A stretch of DNA of 64,000 bases from Puniceicoccaceae bacterium (GCA_040830765.1 JBFOMH010000032.1:9827-73826), one strand, 5' to 3'; numbered from the stretch's first letter, positions 12,155 through 41,567 are shown. The notes: generated by a model from the letters alone, not told the origin. Translations and numbers: made by a program.

Positions 12155-12156
12155 AA

Positions 12157-13560: not shown

Positions 13561-13561
13561 C

Positions 13562-22859: not shown

Positions 22860-22878
22860 GGGGTATGTCAGGATGGAC

Positions 22879-23883
22879 TCATGTCTTGGGGATCAGCTTC
22901 ATGGCTGCCTGGGAAAGGCCTTCCATGGATATGCCATAGTGACGGAATATATCGGCCTGGCTTCCGGTTACGGTGTATTCGTCAGGAATGCCAATACGTT
23001 GGAACGGCTTGTGGACACCGGCTTCCATGAACAAGCCAGCGCAGGCTTCCCCGAGTCCACCGTTGACCATGTGTTCCTCAACGGTGACCACGGCGCTGCA
23101 GGTGCGGGCGCCTTCCAGAATGGCCTCCGTGTCGAGGGGCTTGATGGTCGGAAGACTGAGGACAGATGCCTCGATTCCGGCCTCCTTGTGCAGTAGCTCG
23201 GCTGCCAGCCAGGCATGGATGACCGTTTCGCCGGTGGCAATAAAGAGGATGTCCTTGCCGCTGCGCAGAGGCCGCGCTTGGCCGATTTGGAAAGGCTTAT
23301 TCCCGGGAAGATCATATTGGGCCGCTTTCCCAAAGCGCAGATAGACAGGACTTTCCAGGTTGACTGCCTGCCTGACCGCTTCGGCGGTCTCGAAGTTGTC
23401 CGCGGGGACGAGGATGGTGAGATTGTTGATAGCCCGCAAGGCCGCCAAGTCATGCAGGGAATGGTGAGTCGAACCGAGGGCACCATAGCTGACACCGGCA
23501 CTGATGCCAACGAGCGTTACGGGGTTGTCTGAGTAGGCGACGTCGTTCTTGATCTGTTCCAGCGCTCGTGCCGAGAGGAAGCAGGCGGGTGAGACTGCCA
23601 GGGTTTTCTTGCCTGTTGAGGCAAGGCCGGCTGCGACGCCGACGAGGTTTTGTTCGGCAATGCCCATCTCGACAATCTGGTCCGGCAGAGCTTCCCCGAA
23701 GGGCTTCAGTTTGCCTGAACCGCGGGAGTCACTGGTCACGACCAGCACATCGCGATCGGCTCTTGCCAACTCGAGGGCGGTCTCAGCAAAAACCTCGAGG
23801 TTGGGCCGTCCGAGCTTGAGGCCAGTCTCCTTAATCAGGCTGGCTGCCGCTTCGCTGAACAGGGATGGGGCGGGTGCGCTCAT
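22879..23883 (-). CDS. Split transketolase, C-terminal subunit (AptB-like)
   Basis: EMGIAEQNL, RALEQIKND, GSTHHS, PVYLR, TVEEH, GGLG. Confidence 0.93.
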   Translation of the reverse strand: MSAPAPSLFSEAAASLIKETGLKLGRPNLEVFAETALELARADRDVLVVTSDSRGSGKLKPFGEALPDQIVEMGIAEQNLVGVAAGLASTGKKTLAVSPACFLSARALEQIKNDVAYSDNPVTLVGISAGVSYGALGSTHHSLHDLAALRAINNLTILVPADNFETAEAVRQAVNLESPVYLRFGKAAQYDLPGNKPFQIGQARPLRSGKDILFIATGETVIHAWLAAELLHKEAGIEASVLSLPTIKPLDTEAILEGARTCSAVVTVEEHMVNGGLGEACAGLFMEAGVHKPFQRIGIPDEYTVTGSQADIFRHYGISMEGLSQAAMKLIPKT

Positions 23884-24722
23884 GTGGTTAACCTCCCCTT
23901 AGCTGCTTCAAGTTTCTTGTCCAGTTCAGCCATGGCCGTTTGCAATTGTTCCTCGCTCGGGACGCCATGATGCCAGCTCCCGACATCTTCCATGAAAGAG
24001 ACACCCTTGCCCTTTGTTGTCCTCGTGATGACAACCGTTGGCTTGCCAACTTCAAGGGGTGAAGCCATGGCCTCCTCCAAGGCTTGGAAATCGTGCCCGT
24101 CCACTGTCGTTACCGCCCAGCCAAAAGAGCGGAACTTATCCTCCAGTGGTTCATGGTTCATGACCTCGCAGGTGCGGCCGGTTATCTGCAGGGTGTTGAC
24201 ATCGAGAATCGCAGTCAGGTTGTCCAGCTTGTAGTGGGATGCTGCCATGGCCGCTTCCCAGTTGGAGCCTTCCGCCAGCTCGCCATCCCCGAGAAGGGTG
24301 AACACGCGATAGTCCTTATTATCCAACTTGCCGGCAATGGCCATGCCGACCGCAATGGGCAGTCCATGGCCAAGGGCACCGGTGTTTTGTTCGATTCCGG
24401 GAATCTTGCGGGTCGGATGGCCGACAAAGTGCGATTGGTATTGGCAAAGGGTATCGAGTTCAGCCGCCGGAAAAAATCCCCGGTTGGAAAGGACTACGTA
24501 AAGTGCCTCGACCGAGTGTCCCTTGCTTTGGACATAGCGGTCACGGTCTGGATCATCGGGCCTTTCGGGGGAAATCCTCAGGATGCGGTTATAAAGGACA
24601 ATCAGGATGTCGAGGCAGGAGAGGCTTCCACCCGTATGACCGGCGCCAGCTTGGTAAATGGCGCCGAGCATCTGCTTGCGCAACTCAAGCGACTTGATCT
24701 GGAGGTCTTCGCTAACGGACAT
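23880..24722 (-). CDS. Split transketolase, N-terminal ThDP-binding subunit (AptA-like)
   Basis: GHTGGSLS, DRDRYVQSKGH, TGALGHG, GDGELAEGSNWE, KGKG, WHH. Start taken as ATG 24722. Confidence 0.93.
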   Translation of the reverse strand: MSVSEDLQIKSLELRKQMLGAIYQAGAGHTGGSLSCLDILIVLYNRILRISPERPDDPDRDRYVQSKGHSVEALYVVLSNRGFFPAAELDTLCQYQSHFVGHPTRKIPGIEQNTGALGHGLPIAVGMAIAGKLDNKDYRVFTLLGDGELAEGSNWEAAMAASHYKLDNLTAILDVNTLQITGRTCEVMNHEPLEDKFRSFGWAVTTVDGHDFQALEEAMASPLEVGKPTVVITRTTKGKGVSFMEDVGSWHHGVPSEEQLQTAMAELDKKLEAAKGRLTT

Positions 24723-24730
24723 CGGTTTGT

Positions 24731-26149
24731 TTACTTGGCGGGATGTCGGTGGATTTCCCATCCGAGGTAAATCTCACAGGCTTCGATCATGACGTCCGCG
24801 GTATGGGAGGCATTCATGACCACATGGTGCTCGAATCCCTCACGACAGACAAAGCGCATCAGGTCCTGCAGGTCCTTGACTTCCGCGACCGCGCGGTTGC
24901 CGAAGGTCTTCAATTCGTCGTTGGTCAGCTGGCCCTCACCGAAGTATCCCTTGATGGTCCCGGTTGCGTCGTCTGTGCTCAGACGGCCAAACGTCAGGGG
25001 CGCGGCCGGTGTCCGCCCATCCAGCGCGCCGTAGGTGTTCTCCTCGCCAACAGAGGTTCCGAGAATGGGGGCTGTGCTCACCTTGGCATCGTCGAGGAAC
25101 GACTTCGCCCAGTTTCCGCAATGGAAGAGGACACATTTGTCATCCTCGTCGCCGTAGTTGTTGTTCCAGTCGACCAATGCGCTGGGGCTGGAGGAGGCCA
25201 ATTGCATGGCATACATGGTCAGGACGCCGGTTACATCGACTTCACAGGCGCTCGGCGCCAGCTCCTCGCTCATCATGCTCATGCTGGTGCAGAAGTTGCA
25301 GCCATGGTTCAGCTGGACGCTGGTCCAGCACTGGATGGCGGTGGCGTCGAGGTCGTTGTCGGCAATAAATTTGTCAAGGACTACACCCAGCCGGGCCATC
25401 TTTTCCAATCGGTCGGCAGGAACGCCGGTTGTATCGGCGTATCCCTCGATTTCAGCGACCTTGGCTTTCAAGGTAGCGTCGGAAGCCTCCAGCTTGTCGG
25501 CTGCCCCGAGGACTTCTGAGAGATCGACTGTGGTTACACTGATCCCGTTACGCTCAAGGATCTTTTCACTGTAGCGGACGGTATTGAATGCCCCGGGCCG
25601 TGCCCCGACGGCCCCGATGCGCAGGTTGCGCAAGCCATTGACCACCCGGCAGACGGAAAGGAATCGTGACAGGTCCTTCCGGAAGGAGGGATCTGAGGGA
25701 TGGACAACGTGTTTATTGGTCAGGCTATAGGGGATGCCGGCCTGGCGAAGGTTGTTGCAAACCGATATCTTGCCGCAATAAGCATCGCGGCGACGGACAA
25801 CGTCAAGGCGGTCCAGGGAGTCAGGGTAGGCGTGGATCAGGACCGGGACGTTCAGCCCAGCCAGCTTGAGGGTTTCCAGCACGCCTTTCTCATCACCAAA
25901 GTTGGGAAGGACCACGATAATTCCCCCAATTTCATCGGCGTGGGCCTTGAATAGCTGGGCACAAGCCTTGGCTTCGGCATGGGTTTCCACTCCTCCCAGC
26001 TTGGTCGCCTCGGGATCGAGTTGGATGGTCTTGAGATTGAGCTCTTCGGCCAGTTGTTGATAGTCATTTCGCGCTTCCTCGACGAGGCTATCGGGAAAAA
26101 AGTCACGATTTCCAAAAAGGAGTCCAAGTGATTCTTTGCTGTTTTTCAT
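24731..26149 (-). CDS. L-fucose/L-arabinose isomerase family protein
   Basis: GNRDFFP, LPNFGDE, RRDAYCGK, AIQCW, ACEVDVTG, VLFHCGN, GFEHHV. Confidence 0.88.
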   Translation of the reverse strand: MKNSKESLGLLFGNRDFFPDSLVEEARNDYQQLAEELNLKTIQLDPEATKLGGVETHAEAKACAQLFKAHADEIGGIIVVLPNFGDEKGVLETLKLAGLNVPVLIHAYPDSLDRLDVVRRRDAYCGKISVCNNLRQAGIPYSLTNKHVVHPSDPSFRKDLSRFLSVCRVVNGLRNLRIGAVGARPGAFNTVRYSEKILERNGISVTTVDLSEVLGAADKLEASDATLKAKVAEIEGYADTTGVPADRLEKMARLGVVLDKFIADNDLDATAIQCWTSVQLNHGCNFCTSMSMMSEELAPSACEVDVTGVLTMYAMQLASSSPSALVDWNNNYGDEDDKCVLFHCGNWAKSFLDDAKVSTAPILGTSVGEENTYGALDGRTPAAPLTFGRLSTDDATGTIKGYFGEGQLTNDELKTFGNRAVAEVKDLQDLMRFVCREGFEHHVVMNASHTADVMIEACEIYLGWEIHRHPAK

Positions 26150-28399: not shown

Positions 28400-31300
28400 T
28401 CATTCAACCTGCAGTTGGGCAAAGCTGAGCTTATTGAGGTCGTCTGCCTGAAGCCGGATAAAGTAAGTCCCGGCATTGATATCATCGCAGGTCCGGTTGC
28501 GGGAAACTTCCCAGTCATTGCCTTTGGAAGGTGAGAAGGTGAGGGTATCCTCGCATACCAGCCGGTCGTCACGGGTGGAGATGATTTGCAGGGTCGCTTC
28601 AATGGGCTCCTTTAGCGGGGAGCGATAAGTGAAGTTCAATCCGTATCGGTCGCCAACGCCGACTTTGATGATCCAGTCCATCCGGTTCCCTTCAATCTCG
28701 GGCGGTTGATAAACCTGGTCAGGGCGTACCTGCCTCGCCAACACGCAGTACATGGAAGCAGGGCTTCCATCAGGAAGGCTTGGATTCTGGAAAAGGCTGA
28801 CCGGCTCCCCGGGCTTCAGGCGGCGCTTGAGAAGGTCGAAGCTGCCACCATCCTCACTCGTTGCTTCCAGCGACCAACCGGTGGGAATCCAGTCCTTTAA
28901 CCAGTCCGGCAACTGTTCAACCCGGGCATCGATCCCGACAAATACCTCCGCGTGGCCTTCCACCATGAATGTGGCCTTGATATTCGGATTGGCCGCATCA
29001 GTGATGGGCGTGCGAATCCAGTCACAACCGCCGAGCCGGGTTGTGTATCTGCTGATGACCGCTCCACCATCACTATAGAGTCGTCGTCCGGCCTTTAGGT
29101 TGCCGAATGGCTTCCATCCATTTGGATCAGAACTTGAATAAACAGCAAACCCGTTAATGGCTGCGGCGGGCGGGGGCGGAGAATGGGGTTTCACAATGAC
29201 CGTGTACATGTCGGCGGATCCCGCTGGGGAATGTCCGGTTTGTCCGGTGGTAACGGTTTCGCCAGCCTTGAAGTGTTTCCGGAAAACGGCATGGCGGATG
29301 TCCGGGGCTCCGCTCGTCGAGAGAGAGTGGGTGGTCTTGTCCCAGCTCTGGAGCCAGTCTGGAAGCTCTTGAAGGCGGGGATCCAAGGTAACAAAAACAT
29401 CGGCATCCGATGTCAGTTCGAATTGCAGCAGATCTCCGTAATTGAAATGGGGGACGGTTCTCGCGGTTTGAATCCATTCGGACTCCCGCAACTCCCAGGA
29501 AAGGGAATGAATGGTCTCATCATCGTCGGAGTAACGGGAAACCCCCGTGTCGAGGAATGTCCGGACCTGCGTCTTTCCTTGTAGCGATGCGGTAGCGACA
29601 AGATTTTTGATGAGCCGTGACGCTTCGACTGGAACAGGATTTATCTCAGCGGAAGAAATGGCAATGGCACACAGGATGGCCTGGCTTGCCTTGACGGAGG
29701 GGAAGCTGATTTCGAGAACGCCTCCGGAAACTTGCGTCACCACGGTCTTGCGCAAGGCGGTGTCGTGTCCGGCCTCCTTCCAGATATCAAGTTCGGCAAG
29801 TGCGACTTGTCCGTTGACCGCTACGTCAAACAAGCGCCATCCCGTGCAATCCATCCCGCCTCCTGTCCCGTACCAAGGCTCGATGAAGTAGAGATCGACT
29901 GCGTACTGTCCGTCTGGAATCTCAAACGTGTAGGCCAGTTCATGGCGACCATAGCGGAAGGACTGGAACAGAGGGTCGTCGACCGTTCCCCTGACGGGGT
30001 CATAGGTTTCCCGCTTGCTGCCAAATTGCGGGGGAAGATTGGGAAAGGCGGATGCCCACGAGCGGGCTCCCCATGTTCTTCCGGGACCATGCTCCTGATC
30101 GCTCATCCAGGTACTGCCATGGCTGTCCACAAAGGTGGGTCCCCCAACATTGACCCGGTAAAGGTAGTGGCGCCCGGCTATCGGCTGGCAGGGATTTGCC
30201 GGATCGGGATCCCAGTCCGGCAGGTTTGGATCCCCGGGCAAGTGATGCAGGGTAATGATGTCGGTGGCGACGGTCCGGCCCTGGATGCGTGCCTCCGCGT
30301 AGAGGACATTGGTCTTGATCAAGGCCTTGTCCCACCGGAAATGCGTCCCGGTTCCGTTCTTGCGCTGAATGCCCAGTGAGCGACCCTTGTAGCCATTGAA
30401 TAACTCAACCTCCTCGGCGTTGGAATAGACGATTATCCCATCCTTCAATCCCGGCTCCGTCCAACGGTCTGGCCAGGTGTGGGATACAATGTAGACCATG
30501 GGCTCTGTTTCCGCGGGGACAAAGTTGCTGCGGTACATGTAGTAGACATCGAGGGGCTCTCCCCATATGGTCAGGAGCCCCTTGTTGTTGGCCGGACCGA
30601 TACGGTCCCATTCGCGAATCCCGTCACTGGCCTGTTGCAGCTTGCTGCCGATATTCCTTCCCGGATTATTGTGGGTCACCAGTGGCCAGGCGAAGTGGCC
30701 GATAGCCTGCTCCCGGACTGTATCCGCAAGGCGGACTTTCGTTTCCATGAGGGCAGCCATCCGGTCCTCGGTGAGTGGGCCCTCTTCAATGAAGCCGCCT
30801 TCCGAATGATATCCGATGCTGCGCCATGCACCGTATTCACCGACCAGCCTTTGTTGGACCAGCTCCCTGTTGTAGGCCTGGAGATCCCCACCATAGGTTC
30901 CGGACCAGTTTTGCGGGACATCCCAGTCCGTGCCTTCGCCCCCGTTGCAGGTGACGATGGGTCGCTGAATCGAGGCTGTGGGGTCCATTTCACGCATGAT
31001 TTCAACGCACTCCCGGGCAAAGTCCGCCGGAAGCTTGCTTTCATTTTGAAGCCCGTAGAGGAAGAGGGAAGGGCTGTTGCGCCGCTCCCGAATCCAGTCC
31101 CGTAGCAGGGCTTTGTAGTTATCCTTGAAGGCCTCGTTTTCAAACCAGATGTGGGCCCCGAATTGGGTCCACCAGAGGATGCCTTCCCGGTCCCAGATCT
31201 TGTTGAACCTCAAGTTGTGGGGGTGATGGGCATCCCGGAAGGCGTTGAAGCCGGCTGCCCTGACTTGGTTGGCCCGGATGTCCACCATCTCCGCCGAAAA

Positions 31301-32344
31301 GGCGTGGCTGCCTCCGAGAAGATGCTCGTAGTCGGCGACCCCATTGATGAAGACGGGCTCTCCATTCAGCTTGAAGGGTTGTCCCGGAGGGCCATTGAGG
31401 TCCGGCCACTCGAGCCAGCGGACCCCGTAGCCTGTTTCACAGGAGTCGGTCACTCTATCCGCCTCAACCAGTTCTGTCTTGAGGGTATACAGGCAGGGAT
31501 CCTCCAGTGACCACAAGCGGGGATTCTCGAGGACCGGACTTTCGCTGGTAAAGGTCTTCTTTTCCCCCGGTTCCAGCATTTCCTCGGATTCACCAATCCA
31601 GCAGACTGTACCGTCTGGAGATATCAACAAATGCCGGAGGACGAAAGTTCGCGGCGTGTTGCTGTAATTGCGGATTTCCGCCGTGATGTTCAGTTCGGCC
31701 CGATCGGCCGAGATGTTGCTTCCATTCCAGATATGGATGCCCCATGGTTCAATCCGTAGCGACCGGGTGATGACAAGATGAGCCGGACGAAAGATACCAA
31801 ATGGCTGGGAACCCTCGGAGAATCCGTATGCCTGCTCACACCCGCCGCATACCCATGGGAGGTCGCGAATACCTGCCGGGTGATGAGCCCGAACCAGGAG
31901 GCTGTTGGGCCTCCCGGGGATGGCCAGGTCTGTTGCGTCAAGGGTGAAGGTTGTCAGGCCACCGGCGTGGCTGCCGGCGTGCTTTCCATTGAGGTAAATG
32001 TCGGCATAGGAGCCGATCCCTTCGAAATATAGGAAGGCCCGCTGGTCCGGGTCCATTTCGGGAATCATGACTTGCCTGCGGTACCATGCCGTCCCGTGAA
32101 GATTACCATGCTTCAGCTGGCGATATCCAAAATAGTCATCCCAGTTATGGGGGACCGTCACGGATTTCCAGTTATCCACTGTCTCAAGGTCGGTCAGCTG
32201 GGTTTCCTCAGCCGAAAGGACCGTTTGCCAGTTATCCTCAAGTGGAATGACCCATCGGGCCGCTTCTCCAGGTAAAGCAAAGGCAAGAAGGGTCAGGAAA
32301 TTGACGACAAGATGACTACGGGCGCGACTCAATGGAAACATCAT
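28400..32344 (-). CDS. GH2 with malectin (CBM57) and further C-terminal modules (resembles the GH2 part of BT0996)
   Basis: VPHNWD, LYFEGIGSYA, GIFRP, AFRDAHHPH, GLQNES, GEYGAW. Malectin: RVNVGG, LFQSFRYG, YFIEPW, RLFDV. Signal peptide. Confidence 0.88.
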   Translation of the reverse strand: MMFPLSRARSHLVVNFLTLLAFALPGEAARWVIPLEDNWQTVLSAEETQLTDLETVDNWKSVTVPHNWDDYFGYRQLKHGNLHGTAWYRRQVMIPEMDPDQRAFLYFEGIGSYADIYLNGKHAGSHAGGLTTFTLDATDLAIPGRPNSLLVRAHHPAGIRDLPWVCGGCEQAYGFSEGSQPFGIFRPAHLVITRSLRIEPWGIHIWNGSNISADRAELNITAEIRNYSNTPRTFVLRHLLISPDGTVCWIGESEEMLEPGEKKTFTSESPVLENPRLWSLEDPCLYTLKTELVEADRVTDSCETGYGVRWLEWPDLNGPPGQPFKLNGEPVFINGVADYEHLLGGSHAFSAEMVDIRANQVRAAGFNAFRDAHHPHNLRFNKIWDREGILWWTQFGAHIWFENEAFKDNYKALLRDWIRERRNSPSLFLYGLQNESKLPADFARECVEIMREMDPTASIQRPIVTCNGGEGTDWDVPQNWSGTYGGDLQAYNRELVQQRLVGEYGAWRSIGYHSEGGFIEEGPLTEDRMAALMETKVRLADTVREQAIGHFAWPLVTHNNPGRNIGSKLQQASDGIREWDRIGPANNKGLLTIWGEPLDVYYMYRSNFVPAETEPMVYIVSHTWPDRWTEPGLKDGIIVYSNAEEVELFNGYKGRSLGIQRKNGTGTHFRWDKALIKTNVLYAEARIQGRTVATDIITLHHLPGDPNLPDWDPDPANPCQPIAGRHYLYRVNVGGPTFVDSHGSTWMSDQEHGPGRTWGARSWASAFPNLPPQFGSKRETYDPVRGTVDDPLFQSFRYGRHELAYTFEIPDGQYAVDLYFIEPWYGTGGGMDCTGWRLFDVAVNGQVALAELDIWKEAGHDTALRKTVVTQVSGGVLEISFPSVKASQAILCAIAISSAEINPVPVEASRLIKNLVATASLQGKTQVRTFLDTGVSRYSDDDETIHSLSWELRESEWIQTARTVPHFNYGDLLQFELTSDADVFVTLDPRLQELPDWLQSWDKTTHSLSTSGAPDIRHAVFRKHFKAGETVTTGQTGHSPAGSADMYTVIVKPHSPPPPAAAINGFAVYSSSDPNGWKPFGNLKAGRRLYSDGGAVISRYTTRLGGCDWIRTPITDAANPNIKATFMVEGHAEVFVGIDARVEQLPDWLKDWIPTGWSLEATSEDGGSFDLLKRRLKPGEPVSLFQNPSLPDGSPASMYCVLARQVRPDQVYQPPEIEGNRMDWIIKVGVGDRYGLNFTYRSPLKEPIEATLQIISTRDDRLVCEDTLTFSPSKGNDWEVSRNRTCDDINAGTYFIRLQADDLNKLSFAQLQVE

Positions 32345-34130
32345 CAATCAGGTATGTTTGCAGGGTGGCCTTCCTATCGGATCCGGGGAGCTCATGTCCT
32401 CCGTCGCCCCGATGGCGGTACTTTCCGGTACGGAATACCAGTCTTTCCACCTCCGGGATAAAATCCGTGAAGTAGGCGATGCGGTAAAGGACTTCCTTCC
32501 CGTCGACGCGGAGTTGGAACCGTTCTGTATTGGAGTCCGGGTTGACGTCGATTTCAATTTCAGTCCAGCGGTTGGCCTCATAGGTCCCGCCCGGTTTCCA
32601 AATTCCCTCATGACGGGCTTCGATTTTTCCCTCTTCTGTCAGGGCAATTTGTACCGGACGCCCGCCATTCGGGCCCACCACGTCAATTTCCAGACGTCCG
32701 TCAATCCGGGAAGGTTTGACCTTGAAGCGGATCAACGCACTCCGGTTCCTCGGGAAGACCTTGGTAACGGCTGCATAATCATAGGGATCCGCATCGGAAA
32801 GCCTGAGAGCCATTTCCTGTTGGCCCTGAGTGTCGTGAACTTCAACCGGTGCCCACAGGGGGCGGTAGACATTCCATCCAACGGGCATCCCGCCTTCGGC
32901 AAAGGACTCGAAGTCTTCCTTGAAGGCGTTGTACTGGACGGTTCCGTTGACCGGAACCGGAACCCGGCTGACCCAGATGTCCTCTTTGTTGACCGAGTAG
33001 GTCAGCCAAAGGTCATCGCCTGGAGGGTTGCCGTTGCCCGGGAAGATTCCCCGCACATACTGGGGTCCCATGTTCTTGTAGAGTCCGGGGAAACGCTGCA
33101 CGGGCAATTCACCGTGGACCGTCAGCAGGTTGCCGAAATGGCGACCGTCTTCACTCAGGGCGACAGCGAGCGGGTGCCGCAGACGGCTGGTCGGGTTAAA
33201 GACAAGGACATAGTGGCCATCATCCGTTTGCTGGGCCCAATACTTGGACGAATTGACGGGAAGGTTTTCCGCGAATCCCGTGCGAGTGAATGTTTCTCCC
33301 TCATCGATCGATATGGATGCCTGGGCATCCTTGGCTATTCCGACGACTTTCCCCTCGGGATTGCGGTAGAATGAGAAGGCCTTCCCCTTGACGCGGTAAA
33401 ACCCGTCCTCGGAGCGGTCTTCTTCCCACCATTGAGCTGTTGCCAGGCGATCTCCCAGCAGGGCCTCACAGGCGGTAACGAATCCCTCGTCGGGAGATTC
33501 CTCATAAAACGGATAAGCCTCCGTCAAATCGGCGTCCAAGTCCTCATGCTGGTTGTAGCGAATAAAAAATACAGGACCGAGCGACCCGTCGGGATAAATT
33601 TCCCGGACAACCCGGCCGATCCCACTCCCATCGTTCGGGCGGGGATAGAGTCCGTGGAAAGCCGTTGCCAGCAGGCGGCCGTTTGGAGCGACATAAAACA
33701 CCATCCGCTGGTGGGTGATGGTCTGCTTGCCATCAGGCAGCTGGATTGCCGGGAAAAGCAATCGTGGTGCTTCCCAGTGGACACCGTCCGTTGAGGAGGT
33801 GAAGGAGGTGTCCGTCGGCATGTCATGTTCATTGACCGGTGCGCTGAGATAGGCGAGGTAGAAGCGCTCGTTCCAATAGGCAAGGTTTGGAGCGTGCAGA
33901 TAGGTGTGGGCGAGCTTGTCGACATGCTCCGGAAAGGAACGGTTGGCCCGGTAGACTTGAATATTGTGGGTCCCCACTGCCGGCGCCAGGCCACCATCGG
34001 CGGCCGTACTTACTTCCTGTGTGCCGGTATAGACAATCGGGGAGGGGGTCTCATTAGAGACGCAGCCGGTTGTCCCGAGAAGTATCGAGAGGAACGGAAG
34101 GGTCCATTTCTTGAACATCAATTCAGGCAT
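32316..34130 (-). CDS. GH143 Dha (3-deoxy-D-lyxo-heptulosaric acid) hydrolase-like, probable lipoprotein
   Basis: PAVGTHNIQVYRANR, HAPNLAYWN, HQRMVFY, GIGRVVRE, GPQYVRGI, YSVNKEDIW resemble the BT1020 N-terminal domain as recalled. LLGTTGC lipobox-like. Start 34130 or 34118. Confidence 0.82.
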   Translation of the reverse strand: MPELMFKKWTLPFLSILLGTTGCVSNETPSPIVYTGTQEVSTAADGGLAPAVGTHNIQVYRANRSFPEHVDKLAHTYLHAPNLAYWNERFYLAYLSAPVNEHDMPTDTSFTSSTDGVHWEAPRLLFPAIQLPDGKQTITHQRMVFYVAPNGRLLATAFHGLYPRPNDGSGIGRVVREIYPDGSLGPVFFIRYNQHEDLDADLTEAYPFYEESPDEGFVTACEALLGDRLATAQWWEEDRSEDGFYRVKGKAFSFYRNPEGKVVGIAKDAQASISIDEGETFTRTGFAENLPVNSSKYWAQQTDDGHYVLVFNPTSRLRHPLAVALSEDGRHFGNLLTVHGELPVQRFPGLYKNMGPQYVRGIFPGNGNPPGDDLWLTYSVNKEDIWVSRVPVPVNGTVQYNAFKEDFESFAEGGMPVGWNVYRPLWAPVEVHDTQGQQEMALRLSDADPYDYAAVTKVFPRNRSALIRFKVKPSRIDGRLEIDVVGPNGGRPVQIALTEEGKIEARHEGIWKPGGTYEANRWTEIEIDVNPDSNTERFQLRVDGKEVLYRIAYFTDFIPEVERLVFRTGKYRHRGDGGHELPGSDRKATLQTYLIDDVSIESRP

Positions 34131-35127
34131 CGTTGGGTCCTTTTTGTCGCGCCATGCTGGCAGCCATGCGGATTGCCTCGAGGAGACTGCGGGGATCGGA
34201 TTTGCCGGTTCCGGCAAGGTCAAAGTTGGTTCCATGTTCTACAGAGGTTCGGATGATGGGGAGTCCCAAAGTAATATTCACCCCAAGCCAGATGCCGAGC
34301 ATTTTCACCGCGACATGTCCCTGGTCATGGTACATCGCCACTGCGGCATCAAACTCACCTTGCAGGGTCCGGAAGAAGACGGTGTCTCCCGGGTAGGGAC
34401 CGCTGACGTTGAAGCCTTCCTTGGTGGCCTGTTCAATCGCCGGCTCAATAAACTCGGATTCCTCGCTGCCAAAGAGTCCATGTTCTCCCGCGTGCGGATT
34501 GAGCCCGGCCACCGCAATTGATGGATTTTCGATGCCCATCTGCTGCAAGGCCTCACGGGTCAAGGCAATGACCTTGAGTATCCGTTCCGGTTGGACGCGG
34601 TCCACTGCCTCGCGAAGGGAAACATGTGTGGAAACATGACTTACCCGGAGCTTTCCTGCAGCCAGCATCATGGTGGCCCCGGGTGACTTGCAGAGGTGGG
34701 ACAAGAGGCCCGTATGGCCGTCGAAGGTATGGCCGGCAAGATTCAGCGATTCCTTGTTGATGGCATTGGTAACCATGGCACCGGCCTGCCCGTTGAGGCA
34801 CAATTCACCGGCCTTGCAGATGTATTGATAAGCTGCTTCACCTGCTTCAGGCGCAACTTTGCCAATATTCAGTGTTCCGGTATCCACATTGGCCATGTCG
34901 AGAACACGAATAACCTGTGGAGATGAGCCTTCGTCAGGAATCCCTGTAACTGGTTCGACCGTCGATCCTGTTCCAGTGTACTCTTGCGCGCGCTCAATGA
35001 TTGTCGCATCGCCGATGACAATGGGATTGCAGATGCGGTGGATATCTTCCTCTTGCCAGGCTTTTGTTATTAATTCGGGACCTGTCCCGGCAGGGTCCCC
35101 CATGGTGATAGCTATGGTTGGGCGCAT
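34123..35127 (-). CDS. pdxA: PdxA family dehydrogenase (PdxA2, D-threonate 4-phosphate dehydrogenase-like)
   Basis: ITMGDPAGTGPE, GHTG, STHVSL, GLNPHAGE, AMYHDQG, GVNITLGLPIIRTS. Coupled to a DUF1537 kinase gene. Confidence 0.93.
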   Translation of the reverse strand: MRPTIAITMGDPAGTGPELITKAWQEEDIHRICNPIVIGDATIIERAQEYTGTGSTVEPVTGIPDEGSSPQVIRVLDMANVDTGTLNIGKVAPEAGEAAYQYICKAGELCLNGQAGAMVTNAINKESLNLAGHTFDGHTGLLSHLCKSPGATMMLAAGKLRVSHVSTHVSLREAVDRVQPERILKVIALTREALQQMGIENPSIAVAGLNPHAGEHGLFGSEESEFIEPAIEQATKEGFNVSGPYPGDTVFFRTLQGEFDAAVAMYHDQGHVAVKMLGIWLGVNITLGLPIIRTSVEHGTNFDLAGTGKSDPRSLLEAIRMAASMARQKGPNDA

Positions 35128-36323
35128 TATTGAATGGTTTGGTCGTGGATATTGCTTAGCTCGGGCCAGACTTCCCTGGTAATGGTATCCGGCCAGGGAT
35201 AGCTGCCCGGCTTGATGGTGAAGTTAACCTTATGTTGCTTCAAGGGTGCAAGGGTGACCACCCCCGGTCCCCAGGCATGCATCATTTCGAATTCTTCCCA
35301 GCCTAGTTGCATGGCTATCGAGGCAGCGGTAGCCCCTCCTTCAACAATCAGATGGTCGACATGACCGGACTGGAGCGCTATTGAGGTAGCCAGGGCAAGT
35401 TGCTGGGCCACCCAGGTGGCGTTTCCGGAGTTCGGCTTGGCCTCGGATTGCATCCGCAGGACACAGCCCCTTGACTGGGTTTCACCTTGGAGAAGTTGCT
35501 TGCCCCATCGCTCTCCTGCAGCCTCGGTCGTGTCCTCTGTAGTGCCCTTGACGGTGACAATATTGGAGGTTTCCAACTGGTCCAGAAATGCCTGCTGCCC
35601 AATGTGGGTTGTGCCAGATACAAGGAGGTATTGCCCTTGGTTGAAAGTGGGTTCCGGAAAGTCAACTGGGGAGCGTTTCAGGGTCTTGACCAGCGCTTGG
35701 AAAAGGCCACCCCCACCAGCTAATAAGGTGGCATCATCCCACAGGCCGGCCCAACTATCCAAATCCTCCTCTGTTCGGGCATCACCAATAATAATCCCCT
35801 TCGTGGGTAATGTGTCCCCGGGCCTGGCCGTATGAACCTCGATACCGGGAACCGCACCTAAAAGATTAACTACAGCAGCGGACTTTGCCGGATGATGCAG
35901 GTCATCAGCGAAGGGTGTCTCGTCCAGGGGAACGCCATCAATGCGGTAAATTCCATCCTCGATTGTCCGACCCAGATGTGGATTGGCCGGGACGAGAATG
36001 GTCCGTTGCATGCCCATGACCCGCATCAGTGTAGAGAGTTCCGCGGCGATGGGTCCACGCATCACTGAATCGGTTTTCTTGAATAGAAAACGGGTGTTTC
36101 CCTGGTCACTCAGTTTTTCGGCAAGATGGCGAACCTGGGCTACTGCTGCCTCCTCCCCGCAGAGCCGGGTTTCGGTATCATATACGACAAGGTCCGCCTT
36201 TTCCTCCACGGGCTGCTGGCTCATGCTGACAATTGACCGCAGGCCCGGCCTGTGCCCGATGGCGGCAATCTCGCAGGCGCCAGTCAGGTCATCGGCCAGG
36301 GCCGTGAAGGATTTCCTGCTCAT
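35127..36323 (-). CDS. DUF1537 four-carbon acid sugar kinase (D-threonate kinase-like)
   Basis: ADDLTGA, DTETR, KKTDSVMRG, PANPHLGR, EGGATA, KPGSY. Confidence 0.9.
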   Translation of the reverse strand: MSRKSFTALADDLTGACEIAAIGHRPGLRSIVSMSQQPVEEKADLVVYDTETRLCGEEAAVAQVRHLAEKLSDQGNTRFLFKKTDSVMRGPIAAELSTLMRVMGMQRTILVPANPHLGRTIEDGIYRIDGVPLDETPFADDLHHPAKSAAVVNLLGAVPGIEVHTARPGDTLPTKGIIIGDARTEEDLDSWAGLWDDATLLAGGGGLFQALVKTLKRSPVDFPEPTFNQGQYLLVSGTTHIGQQAFLDQLETSNIVTVKGTTEDTTEAAGERWGKQLLQGETQSRGCVLRMQSEAKPNSGNATWVAQQLALATSIALQSGHVDHLIVEGGATAASIAMQLGWEEFEMMHAWGPGVVTLAPLKQHKVNFTIKPGSYPWPDTITREVWPELSNIHDQTIQ

Positions 36324-37233
36324 CAGTCAAGAAAGGGCAAAGGGCGGTTATCTGGTTCTTGATGTCTTCTGCTTCCTCGCCGCCCAATGTCTGAAGTGGC
36401 GGAAGAACATCGCTCCGGCAGAGGCCGATACCTGCCATGGCTGCCTTCAATGCCGCCAGGGATTGTCCCAAAGTGCGGTTTACCTGGGTGACAGCGGCAA
36501 CCGCATCCAATTGCCTCTGCAGGTTTTCCGCCTTTTCCCATTGGCCTTGAAGGGCGGCATCGTAGAGTTGCTCCCACAGTTGGGGTACCAGGTTGCCACT
36601 GCTTGGTACGAGACCGTCATATCCAAGCTTCAGGGAATCGACGGAGAGAATAGCTGAACCCATGAAGAGGGCGAAATCGTCCCGTCCGCCCAGGGCGTTG
36701 AAGACTGCTTCCATCCTGCCAGGTGCGTTTTCGGAATCCTTGAATCCGACACAAAGGGGAAGATCGGACAGGGCCACAACAACCTCGGGGGGAATCGACA
36801 TCCGCGTTGTCGCGGGGATGTTGTAAATCATGTAGGGCCCGGTGACTTGCTTGTCCAGAAGCAGAAAGTAATCCCGCATCTCGTTTTCGGTCAGGGGATA
36901 ATAAGCCGGGAGATGGGCCACCACGGCAGCAACCCCGAGGTCATGATAACGCTGGGCTGCGATAAGGGAATTGGAGAGACAATTGTCGCCGATTCCGGCA
37001 TATATTGGGACCTTGCCGTCTGCCGCCTTGACCGCAGCCTCAACCAGTAGTTGCCGATCCTGGCGCGGGATGGATGCAGTTTCACCTGTGGTTCCAAGAA
37101 CAAAGACGCCAAGGTTATGGCGGGCGATTCGTTGGACTATCCGACCGGCGGCCGCTAAATCGATAGCACCGTCCGCGGTGAACGGGGTGGTTAGGGGGAC
37201 GATTACTCCGGAGTGATTCATATTCGCCTTCAT
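36289..37233 (-). CDS. DapA/NAL family class I aldolase
   Basis: PLTTPF, GTTGE, YNIP, Schiff-base Lys in GFKDS. Confidence 0.92.
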   Translation of the reverse strand: MKANMNHSGVIVPLTTPFTADGAIDLAAAGRIVQRIARHNLGVFVLGTTGETASIPRQDRQLLVEAAVKAADGKVPIYAGIGDNCLSNSLIAAQRYHDLGVAAVVAHLPAYYPLTENEMRDYFLLLDKQVTGPYMIYNIPATTRMSIPPEVVVALSDLPLCVGFKDSENAPGRMEAVFNALGGRDDFALFMGSAILSVDSLKLGYDGLVPSSGNLVPQLWEQLYDAALQGQWEKAENLQRQLDAVAAVTQVNRTLGQSLAALKAAMAGIGLCRSDVLPPLQTLGGEEAEDIKNQITALCPFLTDEQEILHGPGR

Positions 37234-37236
37234 GAT

Positions 37237-38409
37237 TCAAAAAGCTTCCTCATAGATTGACATTGCAGCTGCCCGGTCGATGGGCCGGGGGTTGTTGTTT
37301 AATAAACGGGTAACCTGGAGTGCCTGGTCAGCCAGTTCAGGCAGGGCCTCGGATGGAATACCGAGACTGCCGAGGCCTGTTTCCAGGGAGCAGTCGCGGA
37401 GCATTTGCTGGATATGTCCGACGGCAGCTTCCGCCATTTCCATATCCGTCCCGGAATGCGCCACTCCCATGGCACGGGCGACTTCTGCGTAGCGCGTGGT
37501 CGCGGAGGGGAGATTGTACCGCATGACGGGAGCCAGCAGGACGGCATTGGCAAGGCCATGGGGGACCTTGTAGCGGGACCCTACAGGATAGGAAAGGGCA
37601 TGGACGGCGGCGGTATTGACTGGTCCCAGGCATAGACCGCCCAAGTAGCTGCCGAGGGCAAGTGCGCTCCTGGCAATAAGATCGTTCCCGTCCTTGATCG
37701 CTGCCACAAGTTGACTCGAAATCAGGGAAATTCCCTGGAGTGCGAAGGCATCGACGAGAACATGGGCATGCAGATTGGTATAGGCCTCGATACAATGGGA
37801 GAGCGCATCAAAGCCAGTGGCTGCGGTTACAGCCGGCGGCAGCGAACGGGCCAGCTCGGGATCAATAACAACGAGGTCCGGCACCAGGTAGGGACTGATT
37901 ACCGCCTGTTTAAGTCCGCTGGCTGGTTCCAGAAGGATGGCGTTTGGCGATGCCTCACTGCCGGCACCAGCGGTTGTGGGGAGACAAATCAATCTACGTT
38001 GGCGTTCCGGCAGAAGGTTTTTGCCAAAGTAGTGGGGCAACCGCGAGGGCTGATCCCCGATGGCCGCGACAAGCTTGGCGATGTCGAGAACGCTTCCACC
38101 ACCGATACCAATAATGGTGTCACATACGGAGGCGGGTTCCTCACTGCAGACTGCCTGGAAATCAGCAACTGTCGGTTCTGCCGGAAGGTCGCTCTTGATG
38201 AAGGCCTCAATCCCGCATTCAGCGAAAGCCGTAGCCAGTGTATCGGCTGTTTCAATACAAAAGTCAGCTGTCAGGATCCAAGCCTTGCGGCTTCCAAGTC
38301 CTTGCAAACCTTCAGCAAGCCGCGTGCGTTCACCACAGCCAAACCACAGTGCGGCAGGCGTGTTCAGGTGAATGGCCCCAAGGGCAGTTGCGGTTTGCGT
38401 CGGGATCAT
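37237..38409 (-). CDS. Iron-containing alcohol dehydrogenase
   Basis: GIGGGSVLDIAK, PTTAGAGSE, DALSHCIE, HALSY, VPHG. Confidence 0.93.
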   Translation of the reverse strand: MIPTQTATALGAIHLNTPAALWFGCGERTRLAEGLQGLGSRKAWILTADFCIETADTLATAFAECGIEAFIKSDLPAEPTVADFQAVCSEEPASVCDTIIGIGGGSVLDIAKLVAAIGDQPSRLPHYFGKNLLPERQRRLICLPTTAGAGSEASPNAILLEPASGLKQAVISPYLVPDLVVIDPELARSLPPAVTAATGFDALSHCIEAYTNLHAHVLVDAFALQGISLISSQLVAAIKDGNDLIARSALALGSYLGGLCLGPVNTAAVHALSYPVGSRYKVPHGLANAVLLAPVMRYNLPSATTRYAEVARAMGVAHSGTDMEMAEAAVGHIQQMLRDCSLETGLGSLGIPSEALPELADQALQVTRLLNNNPRPIDRAAAMSIYEEAF

Positions 38410-39953
38410 GCGGCACTCCTTTCCCCGGATGCTTTCCCGTAGATGGTCAGCTGCTCAACCTCCTCTGGCCGGTAACCACCAAAGATCAGGCTGGCTGCAT
38501 AGCCGACCCCGAAAAGGACAATGTGGCTAAGGACGCCAATGATGATCGGGTTGAGGCCGAAATTTAACGGCAGGTCAAGAATGTTGTTCTTGGGCTCGGT
38601 GAGCAGGGCCCAACCAGTGAACAACAGGCAGCTGATGATGCCTATGTAACAACCGGTTCGTGTGGCCCTGCGTGTGAGGAATCCGAGGAAGAACAGGCCC
38701 AGCATTCCCCCTGAGAGGATGGCAGCAATGGTTACCGCCCGCTCCATGACAGAGGCCAGTCCTTGTTCCGGTATTAAAAGAATGGCGATCAGCATGGTCA
38801 CGATGCCGGCCACCACGACCATGAGGCGGCCAAAAATGAGTTGAAACCTGTCCGAGGCTTCTGGCCGGAGGTAGTTCAGGTAATCGCGGGTCAGTACGGT
38901 GGCGATGCTGTTAAGGTCCCCGCTGACCGAGGACATCGAGGCCGCAAGGATGGCTGCAAGGATCAGGCCGACAATCCCCGCCGGCATGTTGTTAACGATG
39001 AAGTAGGGGACGACATTGTCGACCAATTGCGGCGGCGGTTGTTCCGTAAGGGCATAGTAGCCGAAGAGGCAGGCGCCGATAAACATGAAAATGCAGTAGA
39101 TGGGCACGCAGAGGAGGGCGTTCCAGATTGCTCCACGGCTGGCTTCACGGTCAGACTTGGCGATCAGGTAACGCTGCACCATGTGCTGGTCGGAAATGTA
39201 ACGCCTTCCCCAGTTGACCATGTAGGCAAGGATAAAGAGCCATTGGGAGGTCAGCATTGGATCACCTAGAGAGGTCAGGTCGAAGGATCCCAGGGTGAAC
39301 TTGCCCGCGCTCCAGGCTTCCCCGACAACAGCCCCGAAGGGACCTGCTTCCGGAGCGAACAGTAAACGGGCCACAATAAGCACAGCCGCCCCGACGAAAA
39401 TAAAGCCCTGCACCACGCTGGCCCAGACCACCGCACTGATACCGCCAATCATGGTGTAGAAGACGGTGAAAAGGGAGCTCCAGAAGATGACGCTGGGCAA
39501 GGGCCAGCCTGTCATCACATTGAGGGCGATAGCCGTGGTCAAAAGGGTCAGTCCGAGATCAAAGAGGCGGTCAGCAAGAAATCCGAAAGATGCATAGAAC
39601 CGCCCTCCCAGTCCAAATCGCTTGCCAATGTACTCGTAGGCACTCATGCCCACCGTTCGTCGGTAGAAGGGAACGATGTAACGGGCGACGAAGAGCAGCA
39701 CAATGACCAGGGTCAGGTTACCCAGGAGCAAAATCATGCCGCTTTGGTAGACCGTGGCCGGATGACCGACGACGGTACCGCTCCCGATGAGGACAGCCAT
39801 CAGGGTCATGGCTACGGCCCATCCCGGCATGGATTTGCCGGCTATGAAATACTGGCGGGTATCCTTCTGTCGCCTGGAGAGAAATACGCTCATTCCCAGG
39901 ATACCCAGCCCGTAGACGATAAGAATGCTGTAATCTAGTGCGGATAAGGTCAC
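38406..39953 (-). CDS. Sodium:solute symporter (SSS, SiaT-like)
   Basis: YFIAGKSMPGW, SAYEYIGKRF, DQHMVQRYL, LAASMSS. GTG at 39953 is preferred over ATG 40010, which overlaps the predicted -10. Confidence 0.9.
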   Translation of the reverse strand: MTLSALDYSILIVYGLGILGMSVFLSRRQKDTRQYFIAGKSMPGWAVAMTLMAVLIGSGTVVGHPATVYQSGMILLLGNLTLVIVLLFVARYIVPFYRRTVGMSAYEYIGKRFGLGGRFYASFGFLADRLFDLGLTLLTTAIALNVMTGWPLPSVIFWSSLFTVFYTMIGGISAVVWASVVQGFIFVGAAVLIVARLLFAPEAGPFGAVVGEAWSAGKFTLGSFDLTSLGDPMLTSQWLFILAYMVNWGRRYISDQHMVQRYLIAKSDREASRGAIWNALLCVPIYCIFMFIGACLFGYYALTEQPPPQLVDNVVPYFIVNNMPAGIVGLILAAILAASMSSVSGDLNSIATVLTRDYLNYLRPEASDRFQLIFGRLMVVVAGIVTMLIAILLIPEQGLASVMERAVTIAAILSGGMLGLFFLGFLTRRATRTGCYIGIISCLLFTGWALLTEPKNNILDLPLNFGLNPIIIGVLSHIVLFGVGYAASLIFGGYRPEEVEQLTIYGKASGERSAA

Positions 39954-40008
39954 GGGAGCGAGGATTGTGGAATGGTCGCGGGATGTGGAGACAGATGAAT
40001 TACATGTC

Positions 40009-40057
40009 ATAGAATTTCATGAAATAGGTTCTGTCAACTCTCTTATTTCATAAAATA
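40009..40057 (-). promoter_or_regulatory. Promoter and two putative operators for the SSS-ADH-aldolase operon
   Basis: Minus-strand TTGACA (40037-40032), 17 nt, TTCTAT (40014-40009). Palindrome ATTTCATGAAAT (40014-40025) in the spacer. TATTTCATAAAATA (40044-40057) centred 31 bp away. Confidence 0.65.
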
Positions 40058-40063
40058 GCCATA

Positions 40064-40094
40064 GAAAAACCGGGCCGAAGCAATCGGCCCGGTT
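40064..40094 (-). terminator. Rho-independent terminator of the LacI gene
   Basis: Stem AACCGGGCCGA / TCGGCCCGGTT with a 5-nt loop, ending in a T5 run on the minus strand, about 35 nt after the lacI stop. Confidence 0.8.
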
Positions 40095-40129: not shown

Positions 40130-41218
40130 TCAGGGATTGGTAACCGATTCCCCGCGAATGAGTGATGGCTTGATGAGGATCTCCATGTCCGTCTCCACGT
40201 TCGGGTGGGCTATCCGCCAGAGGAGCTGGTCGACTGCCCGGTGGCCAATGAGTTCCGCATGCACATCGATGGAAGCGAGTGCCGGATGGAGATTGGCGGT
40301 CATGGATTTTTCATTGTTACAGGAGATGATGCTAACATCCCTTCCGGCACGTAAGCCCTTGCGCTCGAGCGCAGTGTAGAGCTGGATCGACGTCCTGTCC
40401 GAGGGCACGAATAGGCCGGTCGGCCGTTGCTCCTTGGGGATGGCCAGCCAGTCCTCAACCAGATGGAAGACGTTCTCCGTCTGGGTGATGGCCGGAAGCG
40501 GCCATTGCAGTTCAGTTGGAGGCTCAACCTCCAGCAGGCTGGAGTCCACTCCCTTTTCCTGGCAGGCGACAAGAAAGGTGGACTTCAGGCGCTCGAACTG
40601 GGTCTGGCCGGGCTTGGGATTGAAGAAAGCGACATGCTTGTGCCCCTTTTCGGCGAAATAATCGACAGCCAGGTGGCTGGCTTCCCACGTGTCGAAGTTG
40701 CAGTGATCGCCCTCGGCACCGGACAGTTTGCCCATGAGCCAGATGTGGGGGAGGCGGTAGATATACTTCAGGAGCTCGTAATTCTGGACCGGTGGCAGTT
40801 TTCCCTGGTTGGGTCCTTTGAGGATGAGGCCCTCAACCTTTCCCTCGACGAGGAAGGGTGGAATGCGGTCGCCCCGCGGGATGTTGGCAATCATCAGGTT
40901 TCTGCCCTCATTAGAAAGGGAATGCTCCACTCCCTGGAGGGCCCGGCTGATGATCGGTATCTGGATCAGGGTGTCTTCCATCCCGAAGCAAATGATTCCG
41001 ATATTTCCCTGTTTCTGGCTGACGCCGCTACGGGTCGACTTGCGTTGGCGGAGGCGAACGTAGCCCAGTTCATTGGCTGCTGCCAAAACCCTCTGGCGGA
41101 TCTCCTCATTAACGTCGGCATGTCGGTTAAACACCCGTGAAACAGTGCCGGTAGCGACCCCGGCGGCCTTGGCCACATCGGTTATGGTGGCCTTCTTTTT
41201 TGGTTCAAGCTTGCTCAT
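40130..41218 (-). CDS. LacI-family transcriptional regulator
   Basis: HTH ATITDVAKAAGVATGTVSRVFN followed by a periplasmic-binding-protein-like domain (GRDVSIISCNN, LASID). Confidence 0.93.
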   Translation of the reverse strand: MSKLEPKKKATITDVAKAAGVATGTVSRVFNRHADVNEEIRQRVLAAANELGYVRLRQRKSTRSGVSQKQGNIGIICFGMEDTLIQIPIISRALQGVEHSLSNEGRNLMIANIPRGDRIPPFLVEGKVEGLILKGPNQGKLPPVQNYELLKYIYRLPHIWLMGKLSGAEGDHCNFDTWEASHLAVDYFAEKGHKHVAFFNPKPGQTQFERLKSTFLVACQEKGVDSSLLEVEPPTELQWPLPAITQTENVFHLVEDWLAIPKEQRPTGLFVPSDRTSIQLYTALERKGLRAGRDVSIISCNNEKSMTANLHPALASIDVHAELIGHRAVDQLLWRIAHPNVETDMEILIKPSLIRGESVTNP

Positions 41219-41409: not shown

Positions 41410-41425
41410 TTTCATATGAAATAAT
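41410..41425. promoter_or_regulatory. Putative operator (distal copy)
   Basis: TTTCATATGAAATAAT, identical to 41552-41567. Confidence 0.6.
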
Positions 41426-41509: not shown

Positions 41510-41567
41510 TTGACAATGCCTGCCGGGGCAACCTTTATGAAAAAGGCTATATTTCATATGAAATAAT
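41510..41567 (+). promoter_or_regulatory. Putative promoter and operator for the rightward CAZyme operon
   Basis: TTGACA at 41510-41515 with a weak -10. Perfect 16-bp palindrome TATTTCATATGAAATA at 41550-41565. Confidence 0.6.

Follow-up and report, generated by a model that had tools for sequence, protein, structure and literature searches.

A candidate six-gene pathway for catabolism of the rare sugar acid Dha in a Puniceicoccaceae bacterium

A six-gene cassette on the minus strand of a 64,000-nucleotide stretch of Puniceicoccaceae bacterium DNA (GCA_040830765.1, JBFOMH010000032.1:9827-73826; hereafter the window) is likely to catabolize 3-deoxy-D-lyxo-2-heptulosarate (Dha) via D-threuronate and D-threonate, a reading which draws on gene neighborhoods and on chemistry. 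Dha, an uncommon acid sugar, occurs in plant pectin and in the walls of certain algae; its releasing enzyme is known, and a route of use was not found in searches of the open literature. In the proposed pathway, an exported hydrolase of glycoside hydrolase family 143 (GH143) would release Dha from side chain D of rhamnogalacturonan II (RG-II), and a symporter would import it. A Schiff-base aldolase would then cleave the C3-C4 bond, yielding pyruvate and D-threuronate (D-tartrate semialdehyde), whose aldehyde would be reduced with NAD(P)H to D-threonate by an iron-containing alcohol dehydrogenase (Fe-ADH). A DUF1537 kinase would form D-threonate 4-phosphate, which a PdxA2-type enzyme would oxidize at C3 and decarboxylate to dihydroxyacetone phosphate (DHAP) and CO2. 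The net reaction, Dha + ATP → pyruvate + DHAP + CO2, would be redox-neutral. We infer every substrate and the regulation from observed gene content, families, synteny, co-occurrence, motif conservation and stereochemical fit. The pathway had been proposed in an earlier annotation of the window (the original prediction), and is well supported by its context, namely synteny, co-occurrence with GH143, an oxidative branch and stereochemistry. The cassette represents a complete, five-protein and directly testable pathway, and cultured carriers exist, among them Pedobacter glucosidilyticus DSM 23534, Oleiharenicola lentus and species of Mucilaginibacter and Niabella.

The stereochemical argument of the original prediction agrees with Fischer bookkeeping: retro-aldol cleavage of the D-lyxo heptulosarate gives pyruvate and D-threuronate, reduction of the latter gives D-threonate, and its oxidation gives D-tartrate. 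Of the eight configurations that a heptulosarate can have, D-lyxo and D-xylo are the two from which both D-threonate and D-tartrate are obtained. The glucarate/galactarate pathway GarL-GarR-GarK follows the same logic, in that a keto-deoxy aldaric acid is split into pyruvate and an aldehyde-acid, which is then reduced and passed to a kinase. The cassette differs in its predicted C7 rather than C6 substrate, in needing no dehydratase, in its class I aldolase and Fe-ADH, and in ending in an oxidative decarboxylation. The second half resembles the D-threonate pathway of DtnK, a DUF1537 kinase, and PdxA2, reportedly described by Zhang et al. in 2016. Three papers refer to this pathway (PMC10079672; PMC9997740; PMC7954711), and one of them gives the conversion of D-threonate to DHAP by the two enzymes (PMC10079672). 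The kinase fold and motifs, a PdxA2-like dehydrogenase and the predicted D-threonate to DHAP conversion are common to both systems, whereas in the proposed pathway a glycosidase, an aldolase and a reductase come first and would make D-threonate inside the cell. By analogy, the cassette may work like a glucarate route joined to a D-threonate route, and the sugar-acid pathway that it would form is probably new, although its enzymes come from known families.

The original prediction knew of no characterized Dha pathway, and none was found in searches of the open full-text literature; a prior mention in subscription papers or supplements is possible. The same literature gave no match for threuronate or threuronic and none for the combination of GH143, PdxA and dihydrodipicolinate synthase (DHDPS), and the word "aldolase" is absent from the covered parts of a 2026 RG-II preprint.

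All six genes lie on the minus strand in the predicted order with abutting or overlapping ends, and domain and structure searches matched each of them to the family originally assigned. The first encodes a sodium:solute symporter (38406-40010; PF00474, with TIGR00813 above its cut-off), the candidate Dha importer, and shares an ATGA overlap with the gene of the Fe-ADH (37237-38409; PF00465/PF25137), the candidate D-threuronate reductase. After a gap of 3 nt follows the candidate Dha aldolase, a class I enzyme of the DHDPS/N-acetylneuraminate lyase fold (36289-37233, with the start at 37233 or 37221; PF00701), whose gene overlaps by 35 nt with that of the DUF1537 four-carbon acid-sugar kinase (35127-36323; PF07005), the candidate D-threonate kinase. 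A TAATG junction leads on to the PdxA2-like dehydrogenase/decarboxylase (34123-35127; PF04166), the candidate D-threonate 4-phosphate dehydrogenase, and an overlap of 8 nt to the GH143-like candidate Dha hydrolase (32316-34130; PF24067, 286 bits). In RNA data, the word share of the closest run was 0.14, and two oligo-dT metatranscriptome contig sets held short patchy pieces showing neither transcription nor an operon.

This arrangement is conserved among relatives. In a sample of 300 other Verrucomicrobiota genomes, an aldolase orthologue (at least 45% identity) occurs in 11, the next tier reaching at most 33% except for a second copy of 42% in genome G282. GH143 is present in 15 of the 300, including all 11 aldolase carriers, and each of these 11 keeps the order Fe-ADH, aldolase, kinase and PdxA, followed by GH143, with a symporter inserted before GH143 in one of them. 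Within family f4 alone, 10 of 12 genomes with GH143 carry the cassette, as compared to none of 14 without it. Apparent gene fusions, visible as long open reading frames (ORFs) in orthologous loci, were dismissed, as their tblastn segments do not lie in one frame. A scan of GTDB returned at least 534 aldolase relatives, the best 80 of which provide the locus counts given here; 6 of these loci repeat genomes of the 300-genome sample, and several are close kin. Kinase and/or PdxA lie nearby in 70 of the 80 (the cassette loci), labeled Verrucomicrobiota, Bacteroidota, Planctomycetota, Chloroflexota and KSB1, and all three partners in 60. A gene of the symporter family accompanies 57 of the 70, and 57 have a neighbor homologous to the window's glycan-degrading genes. 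GH143 is found in the locus in 32/70 and in the genome in 65/70, as compared to 4/10 for the loci without a cassette. Among 400 Bacteroidota genomes, aldolase and kinase occur together in 4, of which 3 have GH143, against a GH143 background of 16/400; in metagenome loci, kinase and/or PdxA stand beside the aldolase in 9/14. The possibility that the cassette is distributed independently of GH143, raised by the original prediction as a test, is not borne out in the direction from cassette to GH143 (11/11, 65/70 and 3/4): the cassette nearly implies GH143, and the reverse does not hold.

A different gene set around the same aldolase leads to the same predicted intermediate. In an Acidobacteriota locus (L074:1321-10888), the aldolase is 47% identical and falls inside the clade, kinase and PdxA are absent, and a divergent operon encodes IclR, a 2-hydroxyacid dehydrogenase, two enolase-family proteins, an aldehyde dehydrogenase and GH143. 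The second enolase-family protein is a full-length homologue of Bll6730 (E 2.5e-152, residues 2-383), which we take to be TarD, the D-tartrate dehydratase of Bradyrhizobium japonicum. Part of one paper names Bj.TarD as a D-tartrate enzyme, with no locus tag given (PMC10079672). To judge by this homology, the L074 protein is a candidate D-tartrate dehydratase, and since oxidation of D-threuronate gives D-tartrate, the two downstream gene sets converge on one predicted intermediate. The 2-hydroxyacid dehydrogenase and the other enolase-family protein of L074 have no role in the proposed scheme. Five further loci (L083, L158, L161, L164, L173) combine an aldolase relative with a split transketolase instead of or besides kinase and PdxA, and L083 also encodes a gluconate 5-dehydrogenase-like short-chain dehydrogenase/reductase and a sulfatase; loci of this type possibly represent a third downstream route.

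The GH143-like label of the hydrolase is confirmed by an alignment of its residues 20-566 with residues 22-576 of 5MQR (E 2.4e-113), that is, with the N-terminal half of the GH143/GH142 protein BT1020 of Bacteroides thetaiotaomicron. The protein is thereby homologous to the N-terminal beta-propeller of BT1020 (PF24067), and the GPQY tyrosine and WxEE segments, which may hold the catalytic Tyr and Glu, line up. Its N-terminus, LLGTTGC, is lipoprotein-like and may be read as a lipobox. A 2026 review lists BT1020 as the GH143 Dha hydrolase (PMC13501991), and homology makes the protein of this locus a candidate for the same activity. Both have the beta-propeller and the following domain in common, but the protein here is stand-alone, without the GH142 arabinofuranosidase half, and B. 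thetaiotaomicron has no DUF1537 kinase. Two metagenome-assembled genomes (MAGs) of Sedimentisphaerales (G723 and G725; loci L093 and L096) hold 9-13 BT1020-type propeller matches together with an aldolase and symporter pair, and have no kinase or PdxA nearby.

The aldolase carries the machinery of DHDPS/N-acetylneuraminate lyase class I enzymes, with GTTGE, Tyr133 and the Schiff-base Lys161 invariant in 81 aligned family members. In place of YSIPGRC, found in the genome's own DapA, it reads YNIPATT, which replaces an arginine that presumably binds the substrate of DapA. It scores below the models of DapA (TIGR00674, 150 against a cut-off of 206 bits) and NanA (NF003164, 93 against 281; TIGR00683, 74 against 382), reaches no curated aldolase model cut-off, and forms a clade of its own in a quick tree (SH-aLRT, an approximate likelihood ratio test, 94). 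N-acetylneuraminate lyase, Kdo aldolase and YagE likewise form the Schiff base with GxxGE, Tyr and Lys and release pyruvate in a retro-aldol reaction, whereas the aldolase here stands in a separate clade below all curated cut-offs. The genome's own dapA lies on contig C18 beside a DapB-like ORF, which we take from its N-terminus to be DapB; with this separate dapA and a second pdxA elsewhere, the genome can make lysine and vitamin B6 without the cassette copies. The source genome (G000) also has a cluster at C1:23-26 kb which, going by its N-termini, we take to be of glucarate type, with a dehydratase, a DHDPS-family protein and a reductase.

For the Fe-ADH, the GGGS and Asp/His motifs, the latter presumably the metal ligands, mark a group III enzyme; no named equivalog is reached, and the nearest NCBIfam models, all below cut-off, include lactaldehyde and sulfoacetaldehyde reductases. 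The kinase matches PF07005, with PF17042 just below its cut-off, and has a divergent sequence, about 20% identical to solved members (E about 1e-10). Its structural model (predicted local distance difference test, pLDDT, 91.7) nevertheless has the two-domain DUF1537 fold, as each of the top eight Foldseek hits is a chain of DUF1537 type (E about 1e-21 to 1e-23) and the template modeling score reaches 0.80 against 5DMH. The motifs ADDxTG, R53, KKxDSxxRG, GGxT and KxGS are conserved in 27 orthologues. On the 3-oxo-tetronate kinase model it scores 86 bits, and a Pedobacter orthologue 76, against 135 bits for D-threonate. The PdxA passes only the general model TIGR00557, and it adjoins the DUF1537 kinase and is nearer to PdxA2 structures than to those of vitamin B6 PdxA: the match to 1PS6/1PS7 (E 3e-62) is weaker than those to 2HI1 (PdxA 2, E 4e-85) and 6E85 (a D-threonate 4-phosphate dehydrogenase, E 9e-81). 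The second PdxA of the genome, on contig C4, is 33% identical. By inference, the kinase would work like DtnK.

Some of these family relations would also suit an operon with two functions, in which aldolase and Fe-ADH act on 2-keto-3-deoxy acids derived from galacturonate, rhamnose or fucose, while kinase and PdxA2 serve free D-threonate or D-erythronate, or 4-hydroxythreonine. 2-Keto-3-deoxygluconate would then lead via glyceraldehyde to glycerol, or 2-keto-3-deoxyrhamnonate/fuconate (KDR/KDF) via lactaldehyde to propanediol. YagE is among the aldolase's relatives in the Protein Data Bank (PDB), lactaldehyde reductase is among the best models of the Fe-ADH, galacturonan and linkages of rhamnose are further targets of the locus, and, as stated in part of one source, DUF1537 proteins with PdxA can use 4-hydroxythreonine (PMC7954711). 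The four genes are kept together in 60/80 loci across phyla, which favors one pathway, and the window's cassette holds no dehydratase making KDR or KDF. A division into two functions would moreover leave both the GH143 link and the tartrate variant unexplained, and we consider it improbable.

Several findings weigh against Dha catabolism as the function of the cassette. On the models of the D-threonate enzymes, the kinase reaches 108 bits (NF047819, DtnK, cut-off 450) and the PdxA 324 bits (NF002891, D-threonate 4-phosphate dehydrogenase, cut-off 583), so the two are not filed as DtnK and PdxA2 members and D-threonate is not distinguishable from D-erythronate in their sequences. One genome holds as many as 13 PF24067 matches, and the family may therefore not be monofunctional. 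As to distribution, four Verrucomicrobiota with GH143 lack the aldolase orthologue (G291, with the gene at a contig start, and G045, G122 and G254, at 37-39% identity), and 13 of the 16 GH143-bearing Bacteroidota lack the cassette; the control B. thetaiotaomicron likewise has GH143 and no DUF1537 match. Conversely, GH143 was not seen in 5 of the 70 cassette genomes, nor in G489, most of these being drafts and two loci ending where GH143 is expected. In G108 both PdxA and GH143 are truncated, and L109 has no Fe-ADH within 10 kb. Kin among the genomes are not independent, so Fisher tests of the co-occurrence counts overstate it. The oxidative variant comes from one genome: it was not seen in the 4 aldolase carriers among another 120 genomes of its class, nor in 14 metagenome loci, and two close relatives lie on contigs too short to tell.

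To the same side belong observations that would suit a cassette which mainly catabolizes 3-deoxy-D-manno-octulosonate (Kdo) from RG-II side chain C, yielding pyruvate and D-arabinose, then by oxidation D-arabinonate and, after phosphorylation and an oxidative decarboxylation by PdxA2, D-erythrulose 4-phosphate. Kdo and Dha have the same C4-C6 configuration, which makes cross-reactivity of the aldolase plausible, and D-arabinonate is D-threo at C2/C3. GH33 genes (Kdo hydrolase-like) are neighbors in 16 of the 70 cassette loci, a family member in a Chlamydiia MAG lies directly upstream of kdsB, and G000, which has GH33 and a second symporter (SSS2), holds only three DHDPS-family genes, none of them in the candidate Kdo clade discussed below. 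Together with the non-canonical form of a paralogue beside GH33 in other genomes, the missing sister clade and the kdsB neighbor suggest that the aldolase may be bifunctional, acting on Dha and Kdo. The gene after the cassette in Verrucomicrobiota is GH143, however, and not GH33; the Fe-ADH models nearest in score are aldehyde reductases; the window's cassette has no lactonase or erythrulose-phosphate isomerase; and the D-tartrate dehydratase variant requires a C4 diacid precursor. FucI-like genes adjoin GH33/SSS2 in four cassette loci, and in genomes outside the cassette clade a different aldolase clade stands beside GH33, SSS2, FucI-like or pentulose-kinase genes (L143, L047, L049, L045), which suggests that D-arabinose from Kdo takes another way. 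This sister clade, to which the best PDB match 4XKY belongs (E 8.6e-111 to L045, against 5.6e-36 to the cassette aldolase), is a candidate for a dedicated Kdo route. Even with a bifunctional aldolase, kinase, PdxA and Fe-ADH are best explained by a C4 acid, and Kdo as the main substrate seems to us quite unlikely.

Further aldolase relatives touch on Kdo. The window itself has a second symporter and a GH33-like BNR protein at 50177-52787 on the plus strand, a pair that lacks an adjoining aldolase and is a candidate for releasing and importing Kdo; its homologues elsewhere adjoin the aldolase group close to 4XKY, which was deposited as dihydrodipicolinate synthase and may be a Kdo aldolase. In 12 loci, 11 of them labeled Bacteroidota (L097, L098, L101-L103, L106, L115, L116, L123, L126, L129 and L130 in all), a DHDPS paralogue beside GH33/SSS2 was considered as a Kdo aldolase and set aside: CLSSE replaces GTTGE and its branch is very long, for which reasons it is not used as support. 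In most cases its place is between GH33/SSS2 and the cassette, and some of the loci have a FucI-like isomerase or an FAH-family gene. Members of the aldolase family also occur in two Chlamydiota MAGs (L092:3897-5583 and L081:9986-10915), including the one upstream of kdsB, and possibly belong to Kdo turnover or synthesis.

The cassette also occurs in a second setting, where a sulfatase, a metallophosphoesterase, a TonB receptor, BNR proteins and LamG proteins surround it and GH143 is usually present (L105, L139 and L042/L145), L137 being without a PF24067 match. L042 is the second cassette copy of G282, with a GH143 of its own and a more distant DUF1537 kinase. This setting, and the model scores which leave the kinase's specificity for one C4 isomer unfixed, might be taken to mean that the same chemistry serves a related 3-deoxy-heptulosonic or heptulosaric acid, or another C4 stereoisomer such as D-erythronate, from a bacterial or algal glycan, in which case GH143 homologues would release that related sugar. 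The window's own locus is of RG-II type (GH141, GH127, GH78, GH95, GH33 and a BT0996-like protein), and the configurations compatible with both D-threonate and D-tartrate are few, as shown by the bookkeeping above. Sulfated walls of prasinophytes contain Dha itself, according to a portion of one paper (PMC3355719), so that the second setting needs no other sugar, and we give a related sugar little credence.

Taken further, the aldolase clade would consist of Dha aldolases marking Dha catabolism across several phyla, and D-threuronate would be a new branch point, reduced to D-threonate and on to DHAP in most genomes, oxidized to D-tartrate and oxaloacetate in at least one, and perhaps entering a third, transketolase-linked route. 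Dha would then naturally supply a DtnK/PdxA2 clade with D-threonate inside the cell, and the sulfatase-rich loci would be directed at prasinophyte algae, whose walls and scales hold sulfated Kdo/Dha, and not at plant RG-II. We hold this wider picture tentatively, at somewhat less than an even chance. The cassette pathway itself, if true, would explain what three clades now labeled DapA/PdxA do, namely an unnamed one of aldolases, one of Fe-ADHs and a divergent one of DUF1537 kinases, and would supply a marker that separates pectin degraders using Dha from those that may leave it to others; the sulfatase-type loci suggest a link to green-algal wall turnover. For Dha, standards are missing, and neither the activated form nor the biosynthesis in plants is known (PMC12168206); the aldolase run in reverse could make Dha.

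A separate promoter and operators had been claimed for the cassette. A palindrome, TTTCATGAAA (40015-40024), lies 5 bases before the symporter start and is a candidate operator. A consensus promoter scan called no full minus-strand promoter upstream of the symporter, where an exact TTGACA (40032-40037, minus strand) is a candidate promoter element ahead of the candidate operator. A GC-rich, terminator-like hairpin (40068-40094) separates the symporter from a gene for a LacI-family regulator (40130-41218, minus strand; PF00356+PF13377), whose orthologues, 53-63% identical, adjoin the cassette in several Opitutales loci. The window holds 5 copies of the palindrome TTTCA(N0-2)TGAAA, where 0.18 would be expected, among others as TTTCATATGAAA upstream of lacI (41410-41421), matched by TTATTTCATATGAAATAA upstream of lacI orthologues, and again as TTTCATATGAAA (41552-41563) upstream of a divergent pectate-lyase operon. 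Of 24 orthologous regions, 13 have a LacI homologue, and 11 of these contain the palindrome; the 11 regions lacking LacI do not. The LacI protein is probably a repressor, which would bind TTTCA-N0-2-TGAAA and control the cassette together with neighboring RG-II operons. With 30 copies genome-wide, the palindrome may not be exclusive to this regulator.

Downstream, a BT0996-like GH2 gene (28400-32347, minus strand; NF049877, 1216 bits, below the cut-off of 1800) overlaps the GH143 stop, by which the transcription unit probably extends to 28400. The GH2 protein comes after GH143 in many Opitutales loci and probably shares the cassette transcript while standing outside the catabolic chemistry. 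The surrounding 64 kb are an RG-II-type degradation region, with GH141, GH127, three GH78, GH95/pectin esterase, two GH28, pectate lyases, the GH33-like BNR protein with the second symporter, and two further sugar-catabolic clusters; the closest relatives are Opitutales.

The first of these clusters (21381-26149, minus strand) encodes a FucI-like isomerase, a split transketolase and a glycerol-kinase-like FGGY kinase, presumably resembling the apiose transketolase route; two of the same palindromes lie ahead of it (26144, 26184), and it is found beside the cassette in Bacteroidota loci too. The second (10197-14893, minus strand) comprises a symporter of bile-acid type, an Asp/Glu racemase-family protein, a RuBisCO-like protein (474 bits on OiaX) and a second DUF1537 kinase (373 on OiaK), the cut-off being 700 for both models. 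It resembles, below cut-offs, the 3-oxo-isoapionate route and is a candidate for a branched sugar of RG-II, for instance apiose or aceric acid. A third DUF1537 kinase, at C27:80-86 kb of G000 (L146), is fused to a cyclase-family domain and adjoins an isocitrate/isopropylmalate-type dehydrogenase.

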